From a virus, in the IMG/VR virus record IMGVR_UViG_3300038451_000147, positions 32,001 to 96,000 of that record: 64,000 bases of DNA; one strand, written 5' to 3'. Made by a program: the position numbers and the translations under genes. The number at the start of each line of letters is the position of its first letter. Position 1 is the stretch's first letter. Of this stretch, positions 26,197 to 63,377 are shown one piece after another. The notes below the pieces were generated by a model. That model saw only the letters and a list, made by a program, of their open reading frames with translations. It ran no database searches and was not told the DNA's origin.

Positions 26197-26667
26197 TTAT
26201 TTCCATTTGATAACAAAGGGCAATGGCCCAAACTTCAACTCAAGATAATGCCTAGCATTACAAGGTCTGCAAGTTACTTCCAAATCTTCTATTGACCTCT
26301 CGCCAGAGAGGATTTTTTTGTAAAAGGTCGTAGTTTTACTGCTACCATTATGCTTGTGTTTGTAATCAGTCTTATTTCCGCCACCCTTCTTATGATTAAC
26401 CTCAAGCAATCGAATATCATCGCATCCACAATAGACACATTTTGGAACTTCAAAACCAGATACCTTCTGAAAGACCTTCAGACGATGCTCAAGATACCAC
26501 TTATGAAGACGTTCAGCATATCCTGTTTTTTCTCGCCAACTTTTGTTCTTTCTGTTCATCTCATCTCTATGCACTTCACGATAGTTTCTGTCATACTTAC
26601 ATTGGCAATCTTTACATCGGCTTTGTCTTGGAGCGTCTATCTCTTTTCCACAAGAACAATGAGGCAT
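26197..26667 (-). CDS. HNH-like (His-Me finger) endonuclease
   Basis: CVYCGCDDIRLLEVNHKKGGG...LEVTCRPCN. Confidence 0.7.
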   Translation of the reverse strand: MPHCSCGKEIDAPRQSRCKDCQCKYDRNYREVHRDEMNRKNKSWREKTGYAERLHKWYLEHRLKVFQKVSGFEVPKCVYCGCDDIRLLEVNHKKGGGNKTDYKHKHNGSSKTTTFYKKILSGERSIEDLEVTCRPCNARHYLELKFGPLPFVIKWK

Positions 26668-26693: not shown

Positions 26694-26924
26694 TTAACTC
26701 TTGTGACTGCTAACATCATTCACATACGCAAGAAGAAGAGTCATATGACGACAATGCCTATGAACCCAAAAACCCAGACAGTCGCACGACCCCACATTCG
26801 CTTCTCTACTGTAGAAGAGGTTGTGTGGTAGGTCTTCGGGATGAGACTTGGATTTGACTGTAGCGAACACTAAACCACCTTCATCTTGCAATATAGTTAC
26901 TTCAGACATTTCTCTTTCTCCCAT
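26694..26924 (-). CDS. SWIM zinc-finger protein
   Basis: GSCDCLGFWVHRHCRHM (CxC..CxH). Confidence 0.75.
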   Translation of the reverse strand: MGEREMSEVTILQDEGGLVFATVKSKSHPEDLPHNLFYSREANVGSCDCLGFWVHRHCRHMTLLLAYVNDVSSHKS

Positions 26925-27432
26925 AATATTCTTGAAGCAAAGGTTCTACAATGCTTCTAATGTTACTCCAACGCCTACCCACTTTAACTTCATAAGCGAC
27001 TTGGCAATTCATACAACAGGTTTCCAAATCGTCTGTCTTCCTCTTTCCAGATACTATCATTCTATAAAGGTCGTTGCCTTCTAGTTTTAGAGCCTTTCTT
27101 TCAGAATTGCCGCCCCCGTTCTTATGGTTGATAGATAAAATCAAAGGATTTGCTTCACCACAATACACACACTTTGTCCCAACAATTCTCAACGCCTTGC
27201 TTTTTACTCTCCAATTATAATTGCCAGCATATTCGGGATGCTCTCGAAGATAATGTCTATGATAGCCTTCGTAAGACAAACCCTTTATCTGTCGCTTTCT
27301 TGCTGTCTCAATTGAGCATTTTTTACATTGTGTGCGATACCAAAATTTGCCAGTCTTTGTGTTCCTATTAACATAGAACTCAGAAAGAGGTCGCTCTACT
27401 CCACATTTAGTGCAAACCTTAGAAGTTATCAC
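26902..27432 (-). CDS. HNH-like endonuclease with N-terminal zinc finger
   Basis: KVCTKCGVERPLSEFY...CKKC; CVYCGE..LSINHKNGGG...LETCCMNCQ. Confidence 0.7.
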   Translation of the reverse strand: MITSKVCTKCGVERPLSEFYVNRNTKTGKFWYRTQCKKCSIETARKRQIKGLSYEGYHRHYLREHPEYAGNYNWRVKSKALRIVGTKCVYCGEANPLILSINHKNGGGNSERKALKLEGNDLYRMIVSGKRKTDDLETCCMNCQVAYEVKVGRRWSNIRSIVEPLLQEYYGRKRNV

Positions 27433-28035: not shown

Positions 28036-28272
28036 TCATTGCTTCATCCCTCTGAATACTGCTACAATCCACCAGACGGCGGCTTGAAGCATCAACGTGG
28101 CTGTAGTTATGAGGAGTCCTTCTTCGTAGAAACATGGAACCATGAACGTGAGCAAGGCCGAACACGGAATCGAAGTCTTTCGTGGAACTTGGGCGTTCTT
28201 ATTCCATGCAGTAGGCATCGTAGTAAGTGCTAATCCGAATGACGCTATTGCTATCAGTAAATCCCATATCAA
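28036..28272 (-). CDS. Small three-TM protein, PQ-loop/SemiSWEET-like
   Basis: TTG start overlapping the upstream TGA; three hydrophobic helices with a proline after TM1. Confidence 0.4.
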   Translation of the reverse strand: MIWDLLIAIASFGLALTTMPTAWNKNAQVPRKTSIPCSALLTFMVPCFYEEGLLITTATLMLQAAVWWIVAVFRGMKQ

Positions 28273-28522
28273 AGAGACCCCACCCTCTCGATACCGCCAA
28301 AGTCTTGCATTAGAAGGTAAGTGCCTTCTGGTGTAAGTGGCCACGCCTTTGATTCGTAGACAAGTTTGTATGAGTCTTGGTCTGGGTCGTAGACAACACC
28401 AACAAGTTTCGCGTCAGAAGGGAGATGGGACTTAATCCTGTAAACCCCATTCAACTTGAACATCTCTTGCATTCCTTCCCTAGTCACCAAAAGGAACTTC
28501 TTGCCAGTCATGGGTTGAGGCA

Positions 28523-29233
28523 TCATTCTTCCTCACCCTCTTCCTCTTTCTCTGGCATCTTGGTCTCGAAGTCTTCGATGGTAAGAGGCTCCTTTGTCTC
28601 ATACTTGCAGATGTCTTCCATCTTCATCTCCTCTAGCCAGCCACTATGGAGTAGGATAGACCGGGCCAGAAGGTAGTAAACGGTGGCGATGGCCTTGGCT
28701 CCCACGTTGTTAGCCGGAATAGCGATATCCACATCCTCAAAGGTGGCGTTGGTGTTGCAGATGGCTATGACAGGGATGCCTATGCTAGAGGCTTCATACA
28801 TGGCTCGTCTGTCTCCTCTCATGGCTTCCCCTATCTTCTGTGGGACTCCATTAGTAGGGTCTGAGACCACCAGACAGTCAGCATCCACATAACTCTTGAT
28901 TTGAGAGTTGGTGAGGCTTCCCGCAACGAGACGGTGCATAACTATTGGGATGAGGGTAGCGGCATTGAAAGACTTGAGGGCATTGTCGAATCTGGGGTCT
29001 GTAGCATAGAACAAGGGTCTCATTGCAGGGTCTTGTCCATGTCGGCTTATGTGTTTGCCCACCACATCCAGTTTGTTCAGAATGGCGTTGATGTCCATCA
29101 ATGGATTGCCAGCCGGAGAAACCTCAGAGACATAGATGGCCATGTCTTTGGTGACACCGCCCTTTACCCCGATGTGGATGCCAGTGGCTCTGAGAGCGTC
29201 CTCTGTCAGCATCTTGGGAAGGATGAGACTCAT
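28523..29233 (-). CDS. rps2: Ribosomal protein uS2 (archaeal-type), diverged
   Basis: TGIHIG...TKDM..Y, GSLTN, LVVSDP, GIPVIAICNTN..DIAIPANN.G.KAIATVYYLLAR, IEDFETK; ATGA overlaps with both neighbours. Confidence 0.9.
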   Translation of the reverse strand: MSLILPKMLTEDALRATGIHIGVKGGVTKDMAIYVSEVSPAGNPLMDINAILNKLDVVGKHISRHGQDPAMRPLFYATDPRFDNALKSFNAATLIPIVMHRLVAGSLTNSQIKSYVDADCLVVSDPTNGVPQKIGEAMRGDRRAMYEASSIGIPVIAICNTNATFEDVDIAIPANNVGAKAIATVYYLLARSILLHSGWLEEMKMEDICKYETKEPLTIEDFETKMPEKEEEGEEE

Positions 29234-30435
29234 GCAAAACTCTCCTCTACCGCCCTCACCAACTCGTCCAGAACGGCTTCTGGATTGTTGATGTGGGCCT
29301 TGGCAGACCCCGCTTCTCTCAAACCGCCACCTTCCATGATGGTTGGATTGGCCGTTCTGAAGACCTTTCCGATGTGAATCGGACTATCCGCTTGGCCGTT
29401 CCTTCCTGAGACATGGATACCATACTTAGGAATGGTGTTGATGACGAACCAAGGCTTCTTGTTCTGGCCACCCAACTTGTTCGCCATTGCCGAGCCGATG
29501 TTCCATTCGTGGCTGATGACGGAGACTCCGTAGTTTCCAGTGACCATCGGGAACTCCAACTTCACGTTATTCTTCCAGTCCTCTGAGACCTTCTTGAACT
29601 CCGGCTTATACTTGATGTGGTTCATGGCCATCATCTGAGTATTGGGATTCTTCCCATCTGTAAAGAGAGGAGATGCCAAACTCCCCTTGGTTATCAGAGT
29701 ATAGAGTTCCAACCAGTTGGGTATCTGCTCCAACTCCTTCATGGCCTCATAACAGAAAGGTGGTGCGGCATTGAAGACCATCCTACGTTGGACATGGAGC
29801 AACTGAGCATAGAAGTCTATGAGACCCCAATCATAGCCTAAATTCGCTTGTGTCGCTAAAAGCCCCTTGAGGCCAGCGTGTCTTGAAAGGATGTCCTGAT
29901 AGATTGGGCCACCCTCTTGGCTGTCGCTTGCTACATCGCCTCTGAGTCCGAGCAAGGCCCACTTCTCCATGTTGGCGATTGGCCATTCCAATCTCTTGGC
30001 CCACTTGTAGACGATTCCAGTGGTGCAGTTCTCAGTAGTTGATTCATAGACAAAGGTGGTGTTACCAACAGGTTCGGTCTTGTAACTAGACAAAAGTGCT
30101 TTGTATGTTGCGTAGTCTTCTGGGGTCTCCACTTCTGAGTCGGGCGGATGGTTGTCCCAAAGCACTACATTGATACCAGACTGCATAAGACTCATGGCCT
30201 TTGAGAGCATATCTAGGCCGCTTCCCAAGTCTAGAAGGTAAGCGGTTTCTGGCTTCAGAGCCTTGATTGCCGCTACATTCGCATCCGTCACCCCAAAAGT
30301 ATCCCAATCTTGCCAGATGATGGTGTGCTTCGAGTTGGGCTTCGTTTGGGTGAGTGCATTGTGGACTATCCTAGTGGCGCACATCCCATCGGTATCTTCA
30401 TCGGTCATAATGACCGTATCCTTGTTCTCGCTCAC
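29230..30435 (-). CDS. DHH-family phosphoesterase (RecJ/GAN/Cdc45-like) with altered motifs
   Basis: DEDTDG, LLDLG, WDNH, GLRGDV, VSGR, GGGLREAG. Confidence 0.8.
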   Translation of the reverse strand: MSENKDTVIMTDEDTDGMCATRIVHNALTQTKPNSKHTIIWQDWDTFGVTDANVAAIKALKPETAYLLDLGSGLDMLSKAMSLMQSGINVVLWDNHPPDSEVETPEDYATYKALLSSYKTEPVGNTTFVYESTTENCTTGIVYKWAKRLEWPIANMEKWALLGLRGDVASDSQEGGPIYQDILSRHAGLKGLLATQANLGYDWGLIDFYAQLLHVQRRMVFNAAPPFCYEAMKELEQIPNWLELYTLITKGSLASPLFTDGKNPNTQMMAMNHIKYKPEFKKVSEDWKNNVKLEFPMVTGNYGVSVISHEWNIGSAMANKLGGQNKKPWFVINTIPKYGIHVSGRNGQADSPIHIGKVFRTANPTIMEGGGLREAGSAKAHINNPEAVLDELVRAVEESFA

Positions 30436-30687
30436 GCCTTTTCACCCGCTACAGCCCCGACCCCAATCTTGAGACCGAAACCGTTTTCGAGTTTGAACAT
30501 GACAGCATGGTTCACTGTCATCTCTTCTGGCATCTCAACAGTCTTCGAGAACTTCTCTCTGGTGCGCTCGTCTGTCACAGTTAGCGCAAGAGTTCCATCT
30601 TTGCTTATCTTGTAGGGGCCGAAATCTCCTTCCCACAATGTTTCTGTTTTCATGGCCTACCCATTCGTTTGAAGGTATTTAAGGATT

Positions 30688-31449: not shown

Positions 31450-32091
31450 TTATAATGTTCCAACAGTCACATACCCCTTTGCCGCTTCCAGACCGTCAGG
31501 AGTCCCACAATCGAAGAACTTGCTCTTCGTCTTGATGACATCGAACTTCGTTCCCTTCTGAATCATCTGAAAGAGGACTTGGTTCATGTTCCCATATCGC
31601 AACTGGCCATTCTCCAAAAGTCTCTTGGTAGTCGTCTTCATCAGGTCGGTGAAGATGTCATCCGCGATGTAGGTATCCGCCGTAACATAGGCGTGCTCCT
31701 TAGAGATGAACTCATCCATGAAGTTGTAGTTATCGAAGTAGGAGTCAATCGCACCAAAGACGACCTCTTTGAACTTGGTGTTGACGGTCATAGCCGGGAT
31801 GCCGCTAGTCATCCAAAGAGAGGGGTTGTTAACCTGTCCCTTGCTTCCATTGGTGTCCAGAAAGAGTGTGATGGTCTTATCACTAAAGGTGCTGTGAGCA
31901 TTGTCATTATACCACTTGTTCCACCAACCCTGATTGATTCGGTTGTGGACTATCCAAACCGTATCGGCTGGAACAGCACTGATTGTCCTCTCAAAGAGGC
32001 GGTTGCCGTTACTGTCTAACAGAAGGTGCTTCTGGATTTGGTCTGCCGTGTATCCGCCAGCCATCAGAACTAGAACACGCCCACTACTCAT
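31450..32091 (-). CDS. Degenerate sugar-nucleotidyltransferase (GT-A fold) homolog
   Basis: VLVLMAGG...KHLL and C-terminal FFDCGTPDGL, but the GxGTR loop is missing. Confidence 0.6.
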   Translation of the reverse strand: MSSGRVLVLMAGGYTADQIQKHLLLDSNGNRLFERTISAVPADTVWIVHNRINQGWWNKWYNDNAHSTFSDKTITLFLDTNGSKGQVNNPSLWMTSGIPAMTVNTKFKEVVFGAIDSYFDNYNFMDEFISKEHAYVTADTYIADDIFTDLMKTTTKRLLENGQLRYGNMNQVLFQMIQKGTKFDVIKTKSKFFDCGTPDGLEAAKGYVTVGTL

Positions 32092-60405: not shown

Positions 60406-60746
60406 CCGCGCCCCACTTCCTAATCGCAGTCCGTGAGTTGGGCATCCGAATCGGTGGGCCGACTTCGGTTAGAAGGGAAGGCATCGCAGACATCGCAAGG
60501 GCCAAGAACTTCCAAGAGGCAGAGAGCAAGGCACTGGCAAGGTTCGCCAAGAAGTGGAAGACAAACGTGGTTTGTCTCCAAGTCACTGAGGCACGACTGG
60601 CAGTAAGGCCAGAGCCAGAAGTCCTATACGACTCAGCCAAGGCCGATAAGGTAAACGCGGCCTATTCGCTGGCATTCGCAAGACTGCACATCCCCACGAC
60701 TTACGCATTCGACGCGACCGCGCCAACCTTTAGGAGTCTAGCCTAG
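60402..60746 (+). CDS. Hypothetical early protein
   Basis: GTGA overlap start; ends at the first TAGACTTG junction. Confidence 0.6.
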   Translation: MTAPHFLIAVRELGIRIGGPTSVRREGIADIARAKNFQEAESKALARFAKKWKTNVVCLQVTEARLAVRPEPEVLYDSAKADKVNAAYSLAFARLHIPTTYAFDATAPTFRSLA

Positions 60747-60748
60747 AC

Positions 60749-60946
60749 TTGTTAGCCGCATATTACAAGGCTAAGAAGGACTTGAAGGCCACAGTGGGCC
60801 AACCCCTAAGATACGGCGAAACCTCAATGTTCGGGGCTGAGTTCAAGGCAGACGGCCAATTCTGCGTAGTGGGGCCAAGCGAACATCAGCGTAAGTGGTA
60901 TGCCACCGTGTCCATGAAAAACGGACTCATCGAGAAGGTCTCCTAG
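60749..60946 (+). CDS. Small viral protein (K.KKDLK..VGQPLRY.ETSMFG.E motif)
   Basis: Bounded by two junction octamers; motif recalled from phage hypothetical proteins. Confidence 0.7.
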   Translation: MLAAYYKAKKDLKATVGQPLRYGETSMFGAEFKADGQFCVVGPSEHQRKWYATVSMKNGLIEKVS

Positions 60947-60948
60947 AC

Positions 60949-61335
60949 TTGGCACTTCACTTCGACAGACGCGGAATGTATAAGGGAACCAACCCACTGG
61001 CATCAGCCTTCCCGATAATCACAGACCCAAGCCAATCAGCCACCGAGACCCAGACCTTCCAAGCCTTGAGGGAGAACGTGAACGCCTACAGAGGAATCAA
61101 GGTCTGGAAGCGTGAGCGCAAAGCCCGAAGAGACAAGGGAATCAAGCGAGTCACCACAACCTACACGCCTAAGTCAGTGAAGACCACGACACCCAAGATT
61201 GAACGCAAGGCAGAGCCAGTCACCCTTTACCCCAAGGACGGGGAGCCAATTACTTACCTTCCCACTGAGCCATCAAGTTATGCAGACATCGCCCAAGCAC
61301 TGGCGCAAGCCATCAAGGAATCGGGGATAGCCTAG
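60949..61335 (+). CDS. Hypothetical basic protein
   Basis: TTG start at junction; RKARRDKGIKR motif. Confidence 0.65.
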   Translation: MALHFDRRGMYKGTNPLASAFPIITDPSQSATETQTFQALRENVNAYRGIKVWKRERKARRDKGIKRVTTTYTPKSVKTTTPKIERKAEPVTLYPKDGEPITYLPTEPSSYADIAQALAQAIKESGIA

Positions 61336-61337
61336 AC

Positions 61338-61601
61338 TTGACTCCAAAGTTTTGTCTCGTAGACGGTCTTCAATTACGCCAAGACAAAATGCTTTCGCAA
61401 CCAACGCCTTCAGCGCGTCATTATAAATTGAGTTGTCCAAAAGGCCACGTTTACACATTATCAATCGAGAGCGAAGACGACCTTGATTATCTCACTTACA
61501 TATTTGAACTTGAGTGGTGGGAACGCCCATCAGACTGGAAGGGAAATATGAGAAACATTCGCGCACCAATAAGAGCATTCAAAGAGACAGGGAGCGACTA
61601 G
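61338..61601 (+). CDS. Small zinc-binding hypothetical protein
   Basis: C..D...CPKGH; junction-bounded. Confidence 0.6.
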   Translation: MTPKFCLVDGLQLRQDKMLSQPTPSARHYKLSCPKGHVYTLSIESEDDLDYLTYIFELEWWERPSDWKGNMRNIRAPIRAFKETGSD

Positions 61602-61603
61602 AC

Positions 61604-61714
61604 TTGTTCAAGATAACAAGGTGGGTCACAACGAAGAAAGAGGCAGACGACTTGAGCCAGTGGATTCACGATATAGACGGCATCTGGCCGGAAGTCACAA
61701 AAGAGGCAGACTAG
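61604..61714 (+). CDS. 36-aa hypothetical protein
   Basis: TTG to TAG exactly between two junction octamers. Confidence 0.6.
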   Translation: MFKITRWVTTKKEADDLSQWIHDIDGIWPEVTKEAD

Positions 61715-61716
61715 AC

Positions 61717-61884
61717 TTGGTTAGCAAGACCTTCCGTAAGAAGAGCATGAAGACCAAGAACGGCACGACCATAACCTTCGAGTATGAGGACGGATTCATA
61801 AACCGCGCCCTAATCATAATGACCTTCCCTTGTGGGAATCAGCAATACTTCAGACTCGTTCCAGACGGAAAAGAGAACTGGTAG
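61717..61884 (+). CDS. 55-aa hypothetical protein
   Basis: Junction-bounded. Confidence 0.6.
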   Translation: MVSKTFRKKSMKTKNGTTITFEYEDGFINRALIIMTFPCGNQQYFRLVPDGKENW

Positions 61885-61886
61885 AC

Positions 61887-62051
61887 TTGGCAAAAGACAA
61901 TAAGCCACTGGAAAAGGCAATAGAGGCCCAAGTTTGGGAGCGAGAGTTAGATAATCTGGCTCAACTTGTGAGAGACTTGGCAGACGGAATCAGCACAGAG
62001 AATGCAACAGAAAAGCGAGACCCTTCTAATCCTACACAAGGAGAGACCTAG
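61887..62051 (+). CDS. 54-aa hypothetical protein
   Basis: Junction-bounded. Confidence 0.6.
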   Translation: MAKDNKPLEKAIEAQVWERELDNLAQLVRDLADGISTENATEKRDPSNPTQGET

Positions 62052-62053
62052 AC

Positions 62054-62503
62054 ATGGAAATTCGCATCCCCGAAATAGACCTTCAAAAATTCGAGTGGCT
62101 TATGGGCGAAACAACAGAGTTCAATGTAGGAGTGAACGTAGACAAACACAAGACCCACATCATGCGAGACAACCGAACCATTAGCCTAAGTGTTTGCCTC
62201 TTCCCTTACCACCCAATAGAGCAATGCAGACAATACCGAAGAATCGGGAAGGGACTCAACCCAAGGCAGAAGACACGCGCCCTCAATGCCGTGTGTTTCC
62301 ACGGTCACAAGGCATTCATGCAAGCACTCTTCCAGAACATTCCCAAGGCCAGAATCAGGTCACTCATGACAGACAGAGTTAGGACTAAGTGGATGGACGC
62401 AGAGAACTTCAAACAGGTCGCGCAAGACATCGAATCTGTGAACGTGGGGTCACTAATGGAGTCTACAGTCTACAGCGAAACGTGTGAATGTGGGAGAGTC
62501 TAG
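62054..62503 (+). CDS. Viral hypothetical protein (NAVCFHGHKAFM motif)
   Basis: ATG start at the TAGACATG junction. Confidence 0.7.
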   Translation: MEIRIPEIDLQKFEWLMGETTEFNVGVNVDKHKTHIMRDNRTISLSVCLFPYHPIEQCRQYRRIGKGLNPRQKTRALNAVCFHGHKAFMQALFQNIPKARIRSLMTDRVRTKWMDAENFKQVAQDIESVNVGSLMESTVYSETCECGRV

Positions 62504-62505
62504 AC

Positions 62506-62688
62506 TTGGCAAACGAACTTTCAGACAGATATCTCACTTTCCTAAAGGCAGAGCGCGAGAGACTAAAAGCAAAATTGGAATCCCTTGAGAGAGGAATCAA
62601 AATCGTAGAGACCGACGACTTATGCACTTGCCAACTTGACGGAAAAGGTGAGGCGTGTCCAGTTCATGGAGACATTAGACTTGTCTAA
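62506..62688 (+). CDS. Coiled-coil plus CxC..CPxHG protein
   Basis: TTG start at junction; reads through the next octamer to TAA. Confidence 0.6.
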   Translation: MANELSDRYLTFLKAERERLKAKLESLERGIKIVETDDLCTCQLDGKGEACPVHGDIRLV

Positions 62689-62803
62689 CAATCTTAGACT
62701 CACCTTACTCAGAGCCAGCCTTTACGCCTTGACTCACAGCGCACTGAAGCGTGGGTGGCTTCGGGCTTCGGCCTACCTATTCCGAGAGGCATTCGGGGAT
62801 TAG
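62681..62803 (+). CDS. 40-aa hypothetical protein
   Basis: Hand-translated MSNNLRLTLLRASLYALTHSALKRGWLRASAYLFREAFGD, between two octamers. Confidence 0.55.
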   Translation: MSNNLRLTLLRASLYALTHSALKRGWLRASAYLFREAFGD

Positions 62804-62805
62804 AC

Positions 62806-63219
62806 TTGGGCCAAAAGGAAATACTTGAGGAAGCATTGCGACTCAAAGCAGAAGGTCTTTACAAGACAATAGAAGAGAGAGCCAACGAGTCAGGTTATCA
62901 AGTGGTTAGAACAGCCACCACAACCTACTTAGTAAAGAGGAAGACCAAGGCCAAGAAAACTGAAACCTTCTGGCACTTCCAGCCAGCCGAGCAACTAGGG
63001 AGACACATGGGCCTAATCGAAGTCTACGGAGACATGAGAAGGTCGGATGGCATTGCGACAACTCTCACCCTTATCTCGCCAGACGGTTACATTCCTCACA
63101 CAACTCTAGACGAGTATTTCAAACAGGGTTGGATTATCTCATTCGTTGGTACAGCCAAGTGTGGAGAAGACGGATTGCTTCCCTTCGTTCATCTTATGCT
63201 TGAAGAGGAATGTAAATAG
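62806..63219 (+). CDS. Hypothetical protein
   Basis: Junction-bounded; TTG start. Confidence 0.65.
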   Translation: MGQKEILEEALRLKAEGLYKTIEERANESGYQVVRTATTTYLVKRKTKAKKTETFWHFQPAEQLGRHMGLIEVYGDMRRSDGIATTLTLISPDGYIPHTTLDEYFKQGWIISFVGTAKCGEDGLLPFVHLMLEEECK

Positions 63220-63221
63220 AC

Positions 63222-63377
63222 TTGGCCTTAAGATTTATGTCGTGTGAGTCTGCCCTAATCCTAGTCGGCCAAACAGAAGACGATAAGCCAATCTATGAGT
63301 GTGCATTCCATCATGAGATTTACGAACTGAGAGACAGAGAATATCAGGAGATAACCCAGACTTGGCAATTCGACTAG
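63222..63377 (+). CDS. 51-aa hypothetical protein
   Basis: TTG start at junction; hand-translated. Confidence 0.55.
   Translation: MALRFMSCESALILVGQTEDDKPIYECAFHHEIYELRDREYQEITQTWQFD

Follow-up and report, generated by a model that had tools for sequence, protein, structure and literature searches.

We analysed a 64,000-nucleotide stretch of viral DNA (hereafter the window), corresponding to bases 32001–96000 of the 105,335-bp IMG/VR record IMGVR_UViG_3300038451_000147, and focus here on a gene on its minus strand (28523–29233) that encodes a homologue of the ribosomal protein uS2. The gene is an intact open reading frame (ORF) of 236 residues that begins with ATG, and its guanine-plus-cytosine (GC) content is not anomalous. 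Its product scores 119 bits against the NCBIfam model of eukaryotic and archaeal uS2 (TIGR01012, uS2_euk_arch; E 1.7e-34, residues 11–204) and 49.5 bits against the Pfam family PF00318, above the gathering threshold of 26.1, with the latter match restricted to residues 141–193. The closest solved structures by sequence are archaeal uS2 chains (E 3e-24), while PHROGs contains no family for the viral protein. The intact frame and these matches bear out the original prediction, in which the gene had been described as a full-length, archaeal-type uS2.

The AlphaFold2 model of the viral protein, obtained with an alignment of 26 relatives, has a mean predicted local distance difference test (pLDDT) score of 89.7. 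When this model was used as a query in Foldseek, the top 13 matches were all archaeal uS2 (target template-modelling (TM) score 0.82–0.92, root-mean-square deviation 2.0–2.6 Å), with the structures 1vi5, 9qf4, 9znf and 9fhl ranked first. According to the model, the viral protein has the uS2 alpha/beta fold, and based on the sequence comparisons it is a homologue of archaeal uS2 and a candidate functional equivalent of the cellular protein.

The record from which the window was taken has direct terminal repeats and is 100% complete according to CheckV; the repeat that we found is 82 bp long. The genome encodes a large terminase (TerL), a portal protein, a HerA-type ATPase plus a DNA polymerase of family B (PolB), and a Pfam pass over the 111 ORFs of at least 90 residues in the whole virus genome added HK97-type capsid proteins, PriX, ERCC4, RPA-type OB folds, a SET domain and RNase H. 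In the same pass no ribosomal family other than PF00318 was found, so that the predicted absence of other ribosomal genes nearby extends to the whole genome at this ORF size; neither transfer RNA genes nor Rfam matches were detected in the 64-kb window. Based on the complete genome, the terminal repeats, the hallmark genes and the conserved gene order in four related records described below, the uS2 gene is truly virus-encoded.

Searches of protein collections returned about 18 close relatives of the viral uS2 (48–88% identity), some of them on contigs of 77–107 kb, followed by a cellular-type sequence, P0020, at 39%. Four related IMG/VR records, designated L002, L003, L004 and L085, carry uS2 genes whose products are 79, 66, 61 and 53% identical to that of the window, respectively, and two of these four records are complete (106–107 kb). 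All four share a local order of genes for a 213-aa protein, an RNase H-like exonuclease, a DHH-like protein, uS2 and an 86-aa protein; the DHH-like gene and uS2 adjoin in L002, L003 and L085 and are separated by a small ORF in L004. The identities of the neighbours across L002, L003, L004 and L085 are 76, 54, 52 and 43% for the DHH-like protein and 85, 44, 45 and 37% for the exonuclease, and compared with these neighbours uS2 is better conserved. The ratio of nonsynonymous to synonymous substitution rates (dN/dS) for uS2 is 0.14 (dS 0.92) and 0.13 (dS 0.79) in the two gene pairs that are unsaturated at silent sites, to which this estimate is limited. The gene is under purifying selection among the related viruses, and neutral decay, which had been named as an outcome that would undermine the prediction, finds no support in these values; nor does a chimeric assembly, since the same gene order occurs in four independently assembled records from different samples. 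Within a family of tailed archaeal viruses with genomes of roughly 91–107 kb, uS2 has been kept as a core gene.

For comparison with cellular proteins we used a reference set of 111 uS2 sequences from Thermoproteota, whose alignment has 64 columns conserved to at least 85%. Of these, 33 are retained in the viral clade, among them all universally conserved residues together with the C-terminal pair F222 and E223, and the motifs R..G..TN, DP, EA and IP.NN are maintained throughout the clade (R101, G105, N109, D125, P126, E147, A148, P154, D169, P173, N175 and N176). Directly after the universal D125–P126 lies a virus-specific loop of 12 residues (residues 127–138, TNGVPQKIGEAM; 28820–28855, minus strand), which corresponds to a gap in all of the cellular sequences. 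In the 19 viral sequences T127, N128, G129, P131 and K133 of the loop are invariant or nearly so, and its pLDDT in the model is 92–96. An insertion of about 14 residues had been predicted after VSDP; the insertion is real, although its length is 12 and not 14. The short insertion predicted near GIHIG proved in the alignment to be a single residue, G25. The predicted conversion of the archaeal RF.PG into RLVAG (residues 101–105; 28919–28933, minus strand) is likewise present in this virus, with R101 and G105 invariant, but F has given way to L and P to A in no sequences other than that of the window and those of its three nearest relatives (P0002, P0003 and P0004), and the rest of the viral clade has RF.PG or RF.AG. 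We therefore regard RLVAG as a recent change on a sub-branch and not as a feature of the family.

Apart from the loop, the viral clade differs from the cellular proteins at a series of individual positions, several of which have become fixed for another residue. Position 143 is Q in cells (100%) and R in the viruses (100%), position 160 is D (96%) and N (95%), position 162 is D (100%) and N (89%), position 163 is N (92%) and A (100%), and position 187 is W (100%) and Y (95%); closer to the N-terminus, L43 (95% in cells) is replaced by N (100%) and R79 (89%) by D (89%). The viral clade has lost R179, which does not vary in cells, and Ala is its commonest residue there (58%). Residues 160–179 (NTNA ... 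PANNVGA; 28697–28756, minus strand) thus combine D160N, D162N and N163A with a change of K/R177 and with R179A, and the virus-specific set as a whole comprises the 12-residue loop, R142/R143, D160N, D162N, N163A, the loss of K/R177 and of R179, and W187Y. By the secondary structure of the model, most of these changes would lie in the loops that come after the central sheet's parallel strands; Q143R is placed in the helix next to the insert on its C-terminal side, L43N belongs to the N-terminal hairpin and W187Y to the last long helix. We also considered the idea that an acidic pocket had been converted to a basic one. The net charge of the three remodelled loops is +1 in the viruses and −3 in Nitrososphaeria, but other Thermoproteota likewise have +1, which makes the feature not distinctive, and the overall isoelectric point does not differ between viral and cellular proteins (5.2 vs. 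5.0).

To place the viral protein among its homologues we relied mainly on a careful maximum-likelihood tree of 55 rows (LG+C20 PMSF), with which a quick tree of 81 rows agrees. In it the viral sequences and the named Nitrososphaeria join at 100/100, apart from other Thermoproteota and the outgroups, and the viral uS2 clade (support 100/99) is sister to P0020 (95/94) within a polytomy of Nitrososphaeria. The viral clade thus branches on a long stem from Nitrososphaeria, as had been anticipated. P0020 lacks the insert and scores 233 bits against TIGR01012; it was found on 30 contigs, the longest 288 kb, and is therefore probably cellular, and its nearest named genomes are Nitrososphaeria (53–65% identity). 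The highest identity of any cellular protein to the viral uS2 in BLAST is 39%, to proteins of metagenome-assembled genomes of Conexivisphaerales. These relationships fit a single old capture of the gene from a lineage of Nitrososphaeria, after which it changed fast.

A search with a profile of the viral clade against 1.84 billion representative proteins recovered further proteins that group with this clade in trees (P0035–P0039, P0053 and P0064; P0035–P0038 were included in both the 81-row and the 55-row tree). They share the hallmarks CN[ST][DN]A, YLL and RA..EA and have inserts at the same DP site, mostly of 14–30 residues, and one of them lies on a 162-kb contig. P0035–P0038 score 163–175 bits against TIGR01012, between the cellular and the core viral values. 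P0035 and P0037 had no matches among viral contigs, and P0038 and P0039 had none among metagenome contigs. Judged by these sequence features, the seven proteins may represent uS2 of other virus lineages.

With regard to the host, an archaeon is indicated because the virus encodes PriX, ERCC4 and an RPA-type single-stranded DNA-binding protein. Relatives of its TerL, at 25–34% identity, are present in 17 of 401 Nitrososphaeria genomes (a search confined to Nitrososphaeria, with the genomes G380, G336 and G284 among the 17 being unpublished), and this distribution weakly supports a host within that class. We consider that the host is probably an archaeon of the ammonia-oxidiser type (Nitrososphaeria), a group that includes ammonia-oxidising archaea of soils and waters and whose viruses are poorly known. 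Together, the SET-domain protein, PriX, ERCC4, a nucleotidyltransferase of RlaP type and a dATP/dGTP diphosphohydrolase domain make up a replication and chromatin set that is unusually eukaryote- or archaeon-like for a tailed virus. The related record L085 (IMGVR_UViG_3300021476_000423, 106,907 bp) is classed as a provirus by IMG/VR, and the record of the window and L003 have terminal repeats; if the provirus label is true, some members of the family integrate, and the integrated copy could reveal the host.

The uS2 gene belongs to a short series of coupled genes, all on the minus strand. A TATA-box-like element, TTAAATA (30676–30682), lies 22 nucleotides before the ATG (30653) of the first gene, which encodes 73 residues (30432–30653) and is conserved only in L002, the closest relative; from the spacing of archaeal promoters we take the element to be a putative promoter. 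A scan for sigma-70 promoters yielded fewer sites than shuffled sequences, a comparison with a bacterial consensus that is not meaningful for an archaeal virus. The stop codon of the 73-aa gene overlaps the GTG start of a gene for a DHH/DHHA1 phosphoesterase of RecJ/GAN type (401 residues, 29230–30435), which is in turn coupled to uS2 through an ATGA overlap at 29230–29233, with a Shine-Dalgarno-like GAGGAG (29242–29247) positioned 8 nucleotides before the uS2 ATG. A second ATGA overlap (28523–28526) joins the uS2 stop codon to the start of an 85-aa ORF (28269–28526), just upstream of which lies the Shine-Dalgarno-like GGGTGAGG (28531–28538), so that both of the predicted overlaps are found. 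The 85-aa ORF has a counterpart in L002 with 35% identity over 54 residues and was not found in L003, L004 or L085. Judged by these sequence signals, uS2 is probably transcribed from the TATA-like box in a short coupled operon that consists of the 73-aa ORF, the gene for the RecJ-like DHH nuclease, uS2 and the 85-aa ORF.

The assignment of the DHH-like protein relies on a Pfam DHH match in four of five orthologues, a DHHA1 match in one of the five, and weak profile matches to the archaeal RecJ/GAN structures 5x4h and 5ghr. At the position expected for the DHH motif the protein has DNH (D94, N95 and H96), a triplet shared without exception by the five orthologues. Downstream of the uS2 block, two genes (26197–26667 and 26902–27432, both on the minus strand) encode paralogous cysteine-rich proteins with CxxC pairs followed by ...HK.GGGN...; they look like HNH or zinc-finger nucleases, and the second of them is conserved in L003. 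The conserved 213-aa protein that heads the syntenic block (31450–32091, minus strand) has no Pfam match and by eye resembles sugar nucleotidyltransferases (LMAGG ... FDCGTPDGL). Elsewhere, an octamer TAGACWTG, composed of a TAG stop codon, AC and a TTG or ATG start codon, is enriched in five related records, that of the window itself (G000) and L002, L003, L004 and L085 (in the window at 60744–63224), with counts of 23, 8, 17, 12 and 15 vs. 3, 1, 4, 4 and 5 for the reversed control. Since the enrichment is seen in all five records, this junction motif is a trait of the family and not a quirk of a single genome.

We also added E. coli uS2 (rpsB) to the alignment. In E. coli, a zinc pocket of uS2 is formed by H18, D188, D204 and D205, and contacts with bS1 are made by D188, N203, D205 and R208 (Byrgazov et al. 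2015, PMC4288201); because the pocket residues contact bS1, that surface must be exposed on the E. coli 30S subunit. H18 aligns with V23 of the viral protein (T in cellular archaea), D188 with N160 (D in cellular archaea) and D205 with V177 (K or R in cellular archaea), while R208 aligns with the retained K180 (K in cellular archaea). The 12-residue insert is placed between residues A166 and D167 of the E. coli protein, and in place of the RLVAG of the window virus E. coli has RWLGG. Several of the viral changes thus fall, in the alignment, at positions corresponding to the E. coli zinc and bS1 pocket (H18, D188 and D205), and others adjoin them in sequence.

The location of uS2 on the ribosome is taken from the literature. 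The protein bridges helix h26 of 16S ribosomal RNA (rRNA) in the body and h35–37 in the head of the small subunit (PMC10931766). In yeast it is part of a cluster, assembled late, that also contains uS5, eS21 and the eS17 tail and lies beside Nob1 and Pno1 (PMC6336269), and in archaea uS2 and eS17 are found where the exit chamber, which houses the Shine-Dalgarno duplex, comes to its end (PMC7005279, PMC7531240). According to work cited in PMC7531240, E. coli ribosomes without bS1 and uS2 favour leaderless mRNAs. Being late to assemble and peripheral, uS2 is a plausible protein to swap. We propose that during infection the viral protein takes the place of uS2 on 30S subunits of the host, where its retained core would occupy the uS2 site. 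Since the fold and the universal motifs are kept and the changes include pocket-aligned positions, the anchor on rRNA is probably preserved and the outward docking surface re-fitted, and such a surface could alter the small subunit's choice of mRNA, factor or viral protein. We assign a probability of roughly 0.55 to this reading of the sequence and the model, in which the gene encodes a working uS2 paralogue that would bind the uS2 site by means of its retained core and present a re-fitted outer surface; both incorporation into the ribosome and any effect on translation we infer from the comparisons given above.

Several observations weigh against this proposal. The viral score of 119 bits against TIGR01012 falls well short of the equivalog cut-off of 211.5 bits, which is exceeded in 59 of 61 Thermoproteota genomes; other members of the viral clade score 107–133 bits, cellular Thermoproteota 204–302 bits, and P0020 and P0021 233 and 230 bits. 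In the viral clade 31 of the 64 cellular-conserved columns are changed, several to another fixed residue, and the changed columns include the invariant Q143, D162, R179 and W187, and of the three basic residues in the NNKGRK motif only one is left; with half of the cellular-conserved residues changed, the protein could equally have taken on a new, non-ribosomal job. Furthermore, that the pocket would be solvent-exposed on the archaeal 30S subunit is carried over by analogy from E. coli, and the Shine-Dalgarno-like runs at the virus's own coupled junctions mean that a switch away from Shine-Dalgarno-led initiation is not obviously in the interest of the virus. In a more ambitious version of the proposal, built on the analogy with bS1, the re-fitted surface would create a bS1-like docking site on virus-specialised 30S subunits and would shift start-site or mRNA selection towards viral transcripts (for example leaderless first genes or the genes at TAGAC-TTG junctions that the virus family shares), or else would let ribosomes escape a host translation shut-down. 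We regard this version as speculative and rather unlikely.

The extent of replacement is also an argument for a role outside the ribosome, in which the uS2 fold would have been exapted as a regulator that binds viral or host RNA, as a decoy titrating some host factor that normally recognises uS2 or late pre-30S particles, or as a partner of the RecJ-like nuclease. Many of the changed columns have acquired a new fixed residue, the equivalog score is about half of the cut-off, and the gene resides in a block devoted to nucleic-acid metabolism (RNase H-like exonuclease, RecJ-like DHH protein and zinc-finger proteins) and not among translation genes; an extraribosomal role of uS2 is moreover known from the autoregulation of rpsB-tsf in E. 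coli (PMC10931766). A predicted complex of the viral uS2 with the RecJ-like DHH protein gave an interface score (ipSAE) of 0.00 in two runs made without controls, a value that speaks neither for binding nor against it. However, all universal uS2 motifs are kept, together with the C-terminal EDFET, which has no known extraribosomal role, the whole fold superposes at a TM score of about 0.9, and the changes cluster in loops after the strands of the sheet instead of being scattered. We consider exaptation to be possible yet doubtful, although of the alternatives it has the best claim to attention.

If the protein does act on the ribosome, it might simply top up the production or repair of 30S subunits during host shut-off and leave the behaviour of the ribosome unchanged. 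Because uS2 joins the 30S subunit as one of the last proteins, it could limit subunit completion (PMC10931766, PMC6336269), and homologous replacement has been proposed in general for viral ribosomal proteins (Mizuno et al., PMC6375957). A spare part of this kind should stay host-like, whereas the viral uS2 is at most 39% identical to any cellular uS2 and both the conserved 12-residue loop and the fixed replacements of invariant residues run through the viral clade, which makes mere supply improbable to us. That the gene is an artefact or a passenger, i.e. misassembled cellular DNA or a recently acquired host gene drifting towards loss, seems most improbable in the face of the shared neighbourhood in the four other records, the intact ORFs, the dN/dS values, the unremarkable GC content and the grouping of the viral sequences in one well-supported clade. 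On balance, we favour the working uS2 paralogue with a retained core and a re-fitted surface.

No report of a viral uS2 was found in full-text literature searches, a tblastn search of the viral protein against 50,697 GenBank records of phages and archaeal viruses gave no match, and a Foldseek search of BFVD returned no viral protein with a uS2 fold at E 0.001 or better. Within the literature, GenBank phage records and BFVD thus searched, the impression that uS2 had gone unreported in archaeal viruses holds. The survey of Mizuno et al. (2019) employed 106 profiles that include PF00318; in the accessible portions of that study, the supplements name PF00318 only in the list of profiles and the main text has no uS2 (PMC6375957). 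The same survey described phage-encoded bS21, bL12, bL9, bL31, bL33 and others (Mizuno et al. 2019, PMC6375957) and the incorporation of phage bS21 into host ribosomes (Mizuno et al., PMC6375957). In archaeal viruses, eL21 of Hafunaviridae was called the first ribosomal protein of an archaeal virus (Liu et al. 2021, PMC8651126), and bL19 occurs in a virus of Bathyarchaeia, described in a preprint according to which only L21e had been seen earlier (PMC10541130); eL40 has been reported in giant viruses (PMC11499249). Published viral ribosomal proteins are mostly small and loosely bound, and for archaeal viruses the literature that we found holds only eL21 and bL19.

Compared with cellular archaeal uS2 (S2P; 1vi5/1vi6, 9qf4, 9znf and 9fhl_B), the viral protein has the same fold in the model (TM about 0.9), belongs to the same length class and retains the universal motifs R..G..TN, DP, EA, GIP and IP.NN. 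With Nitrososphaeria in particular, inside which it nests in the tree, it shares the C-terminal EDFET and an acidic tail. In contrast to the cellular proteins, it is encoded outside any ribosomal operon, reaches at most 39% identity and scores 119 bits where the cut-off is 211.5, and it is further set apart by the 12-residue loop after DP, by Q143R, D162N and W187Y and by the loss of R179. Comparison with E. coli uS2 as the platform for bS1 is instructive as well, since pocket-aligned positions are changed in the virus and the E. coli pocket faces outward and recruits a protein that handles mRNA. Archaea, however, lack bS1, the archaeal pocket has no zinc ligands, and the analogy is positional only. 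The changes cluster at aligned positions whose E. coli equivalents form an exposed surface of the 30S subunit, which adds to the interest of the viral protein, and the uS2 site, where the Shine-Dalgarno duplex and the 5′ mRNA exit, would offer a natural test of whether the swap of a single protein can specialise archaeal ribosomes.

Finally, the viral uS2 adds to the known class of virus-encoded ribosomal proteins, with which it shares its occurrence as a lone ribosomal gene in a viral genome, conservation among relatives, purifying selection and a presumed replacement of the host copy. Like the proteins favoured by phages, uS2 is peripheral and binds late. It differs from them in being large (about 25 kDa), universal and essential instead of small and loosely bound, in belonging to a virus with an archaeal host and in being heavily remodelled instead of host-like. 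The long retention of a universal, essential 25-kDa protein of the small subunit by a family of archaeal viruses widens the range of what viruses take from the ribosome.

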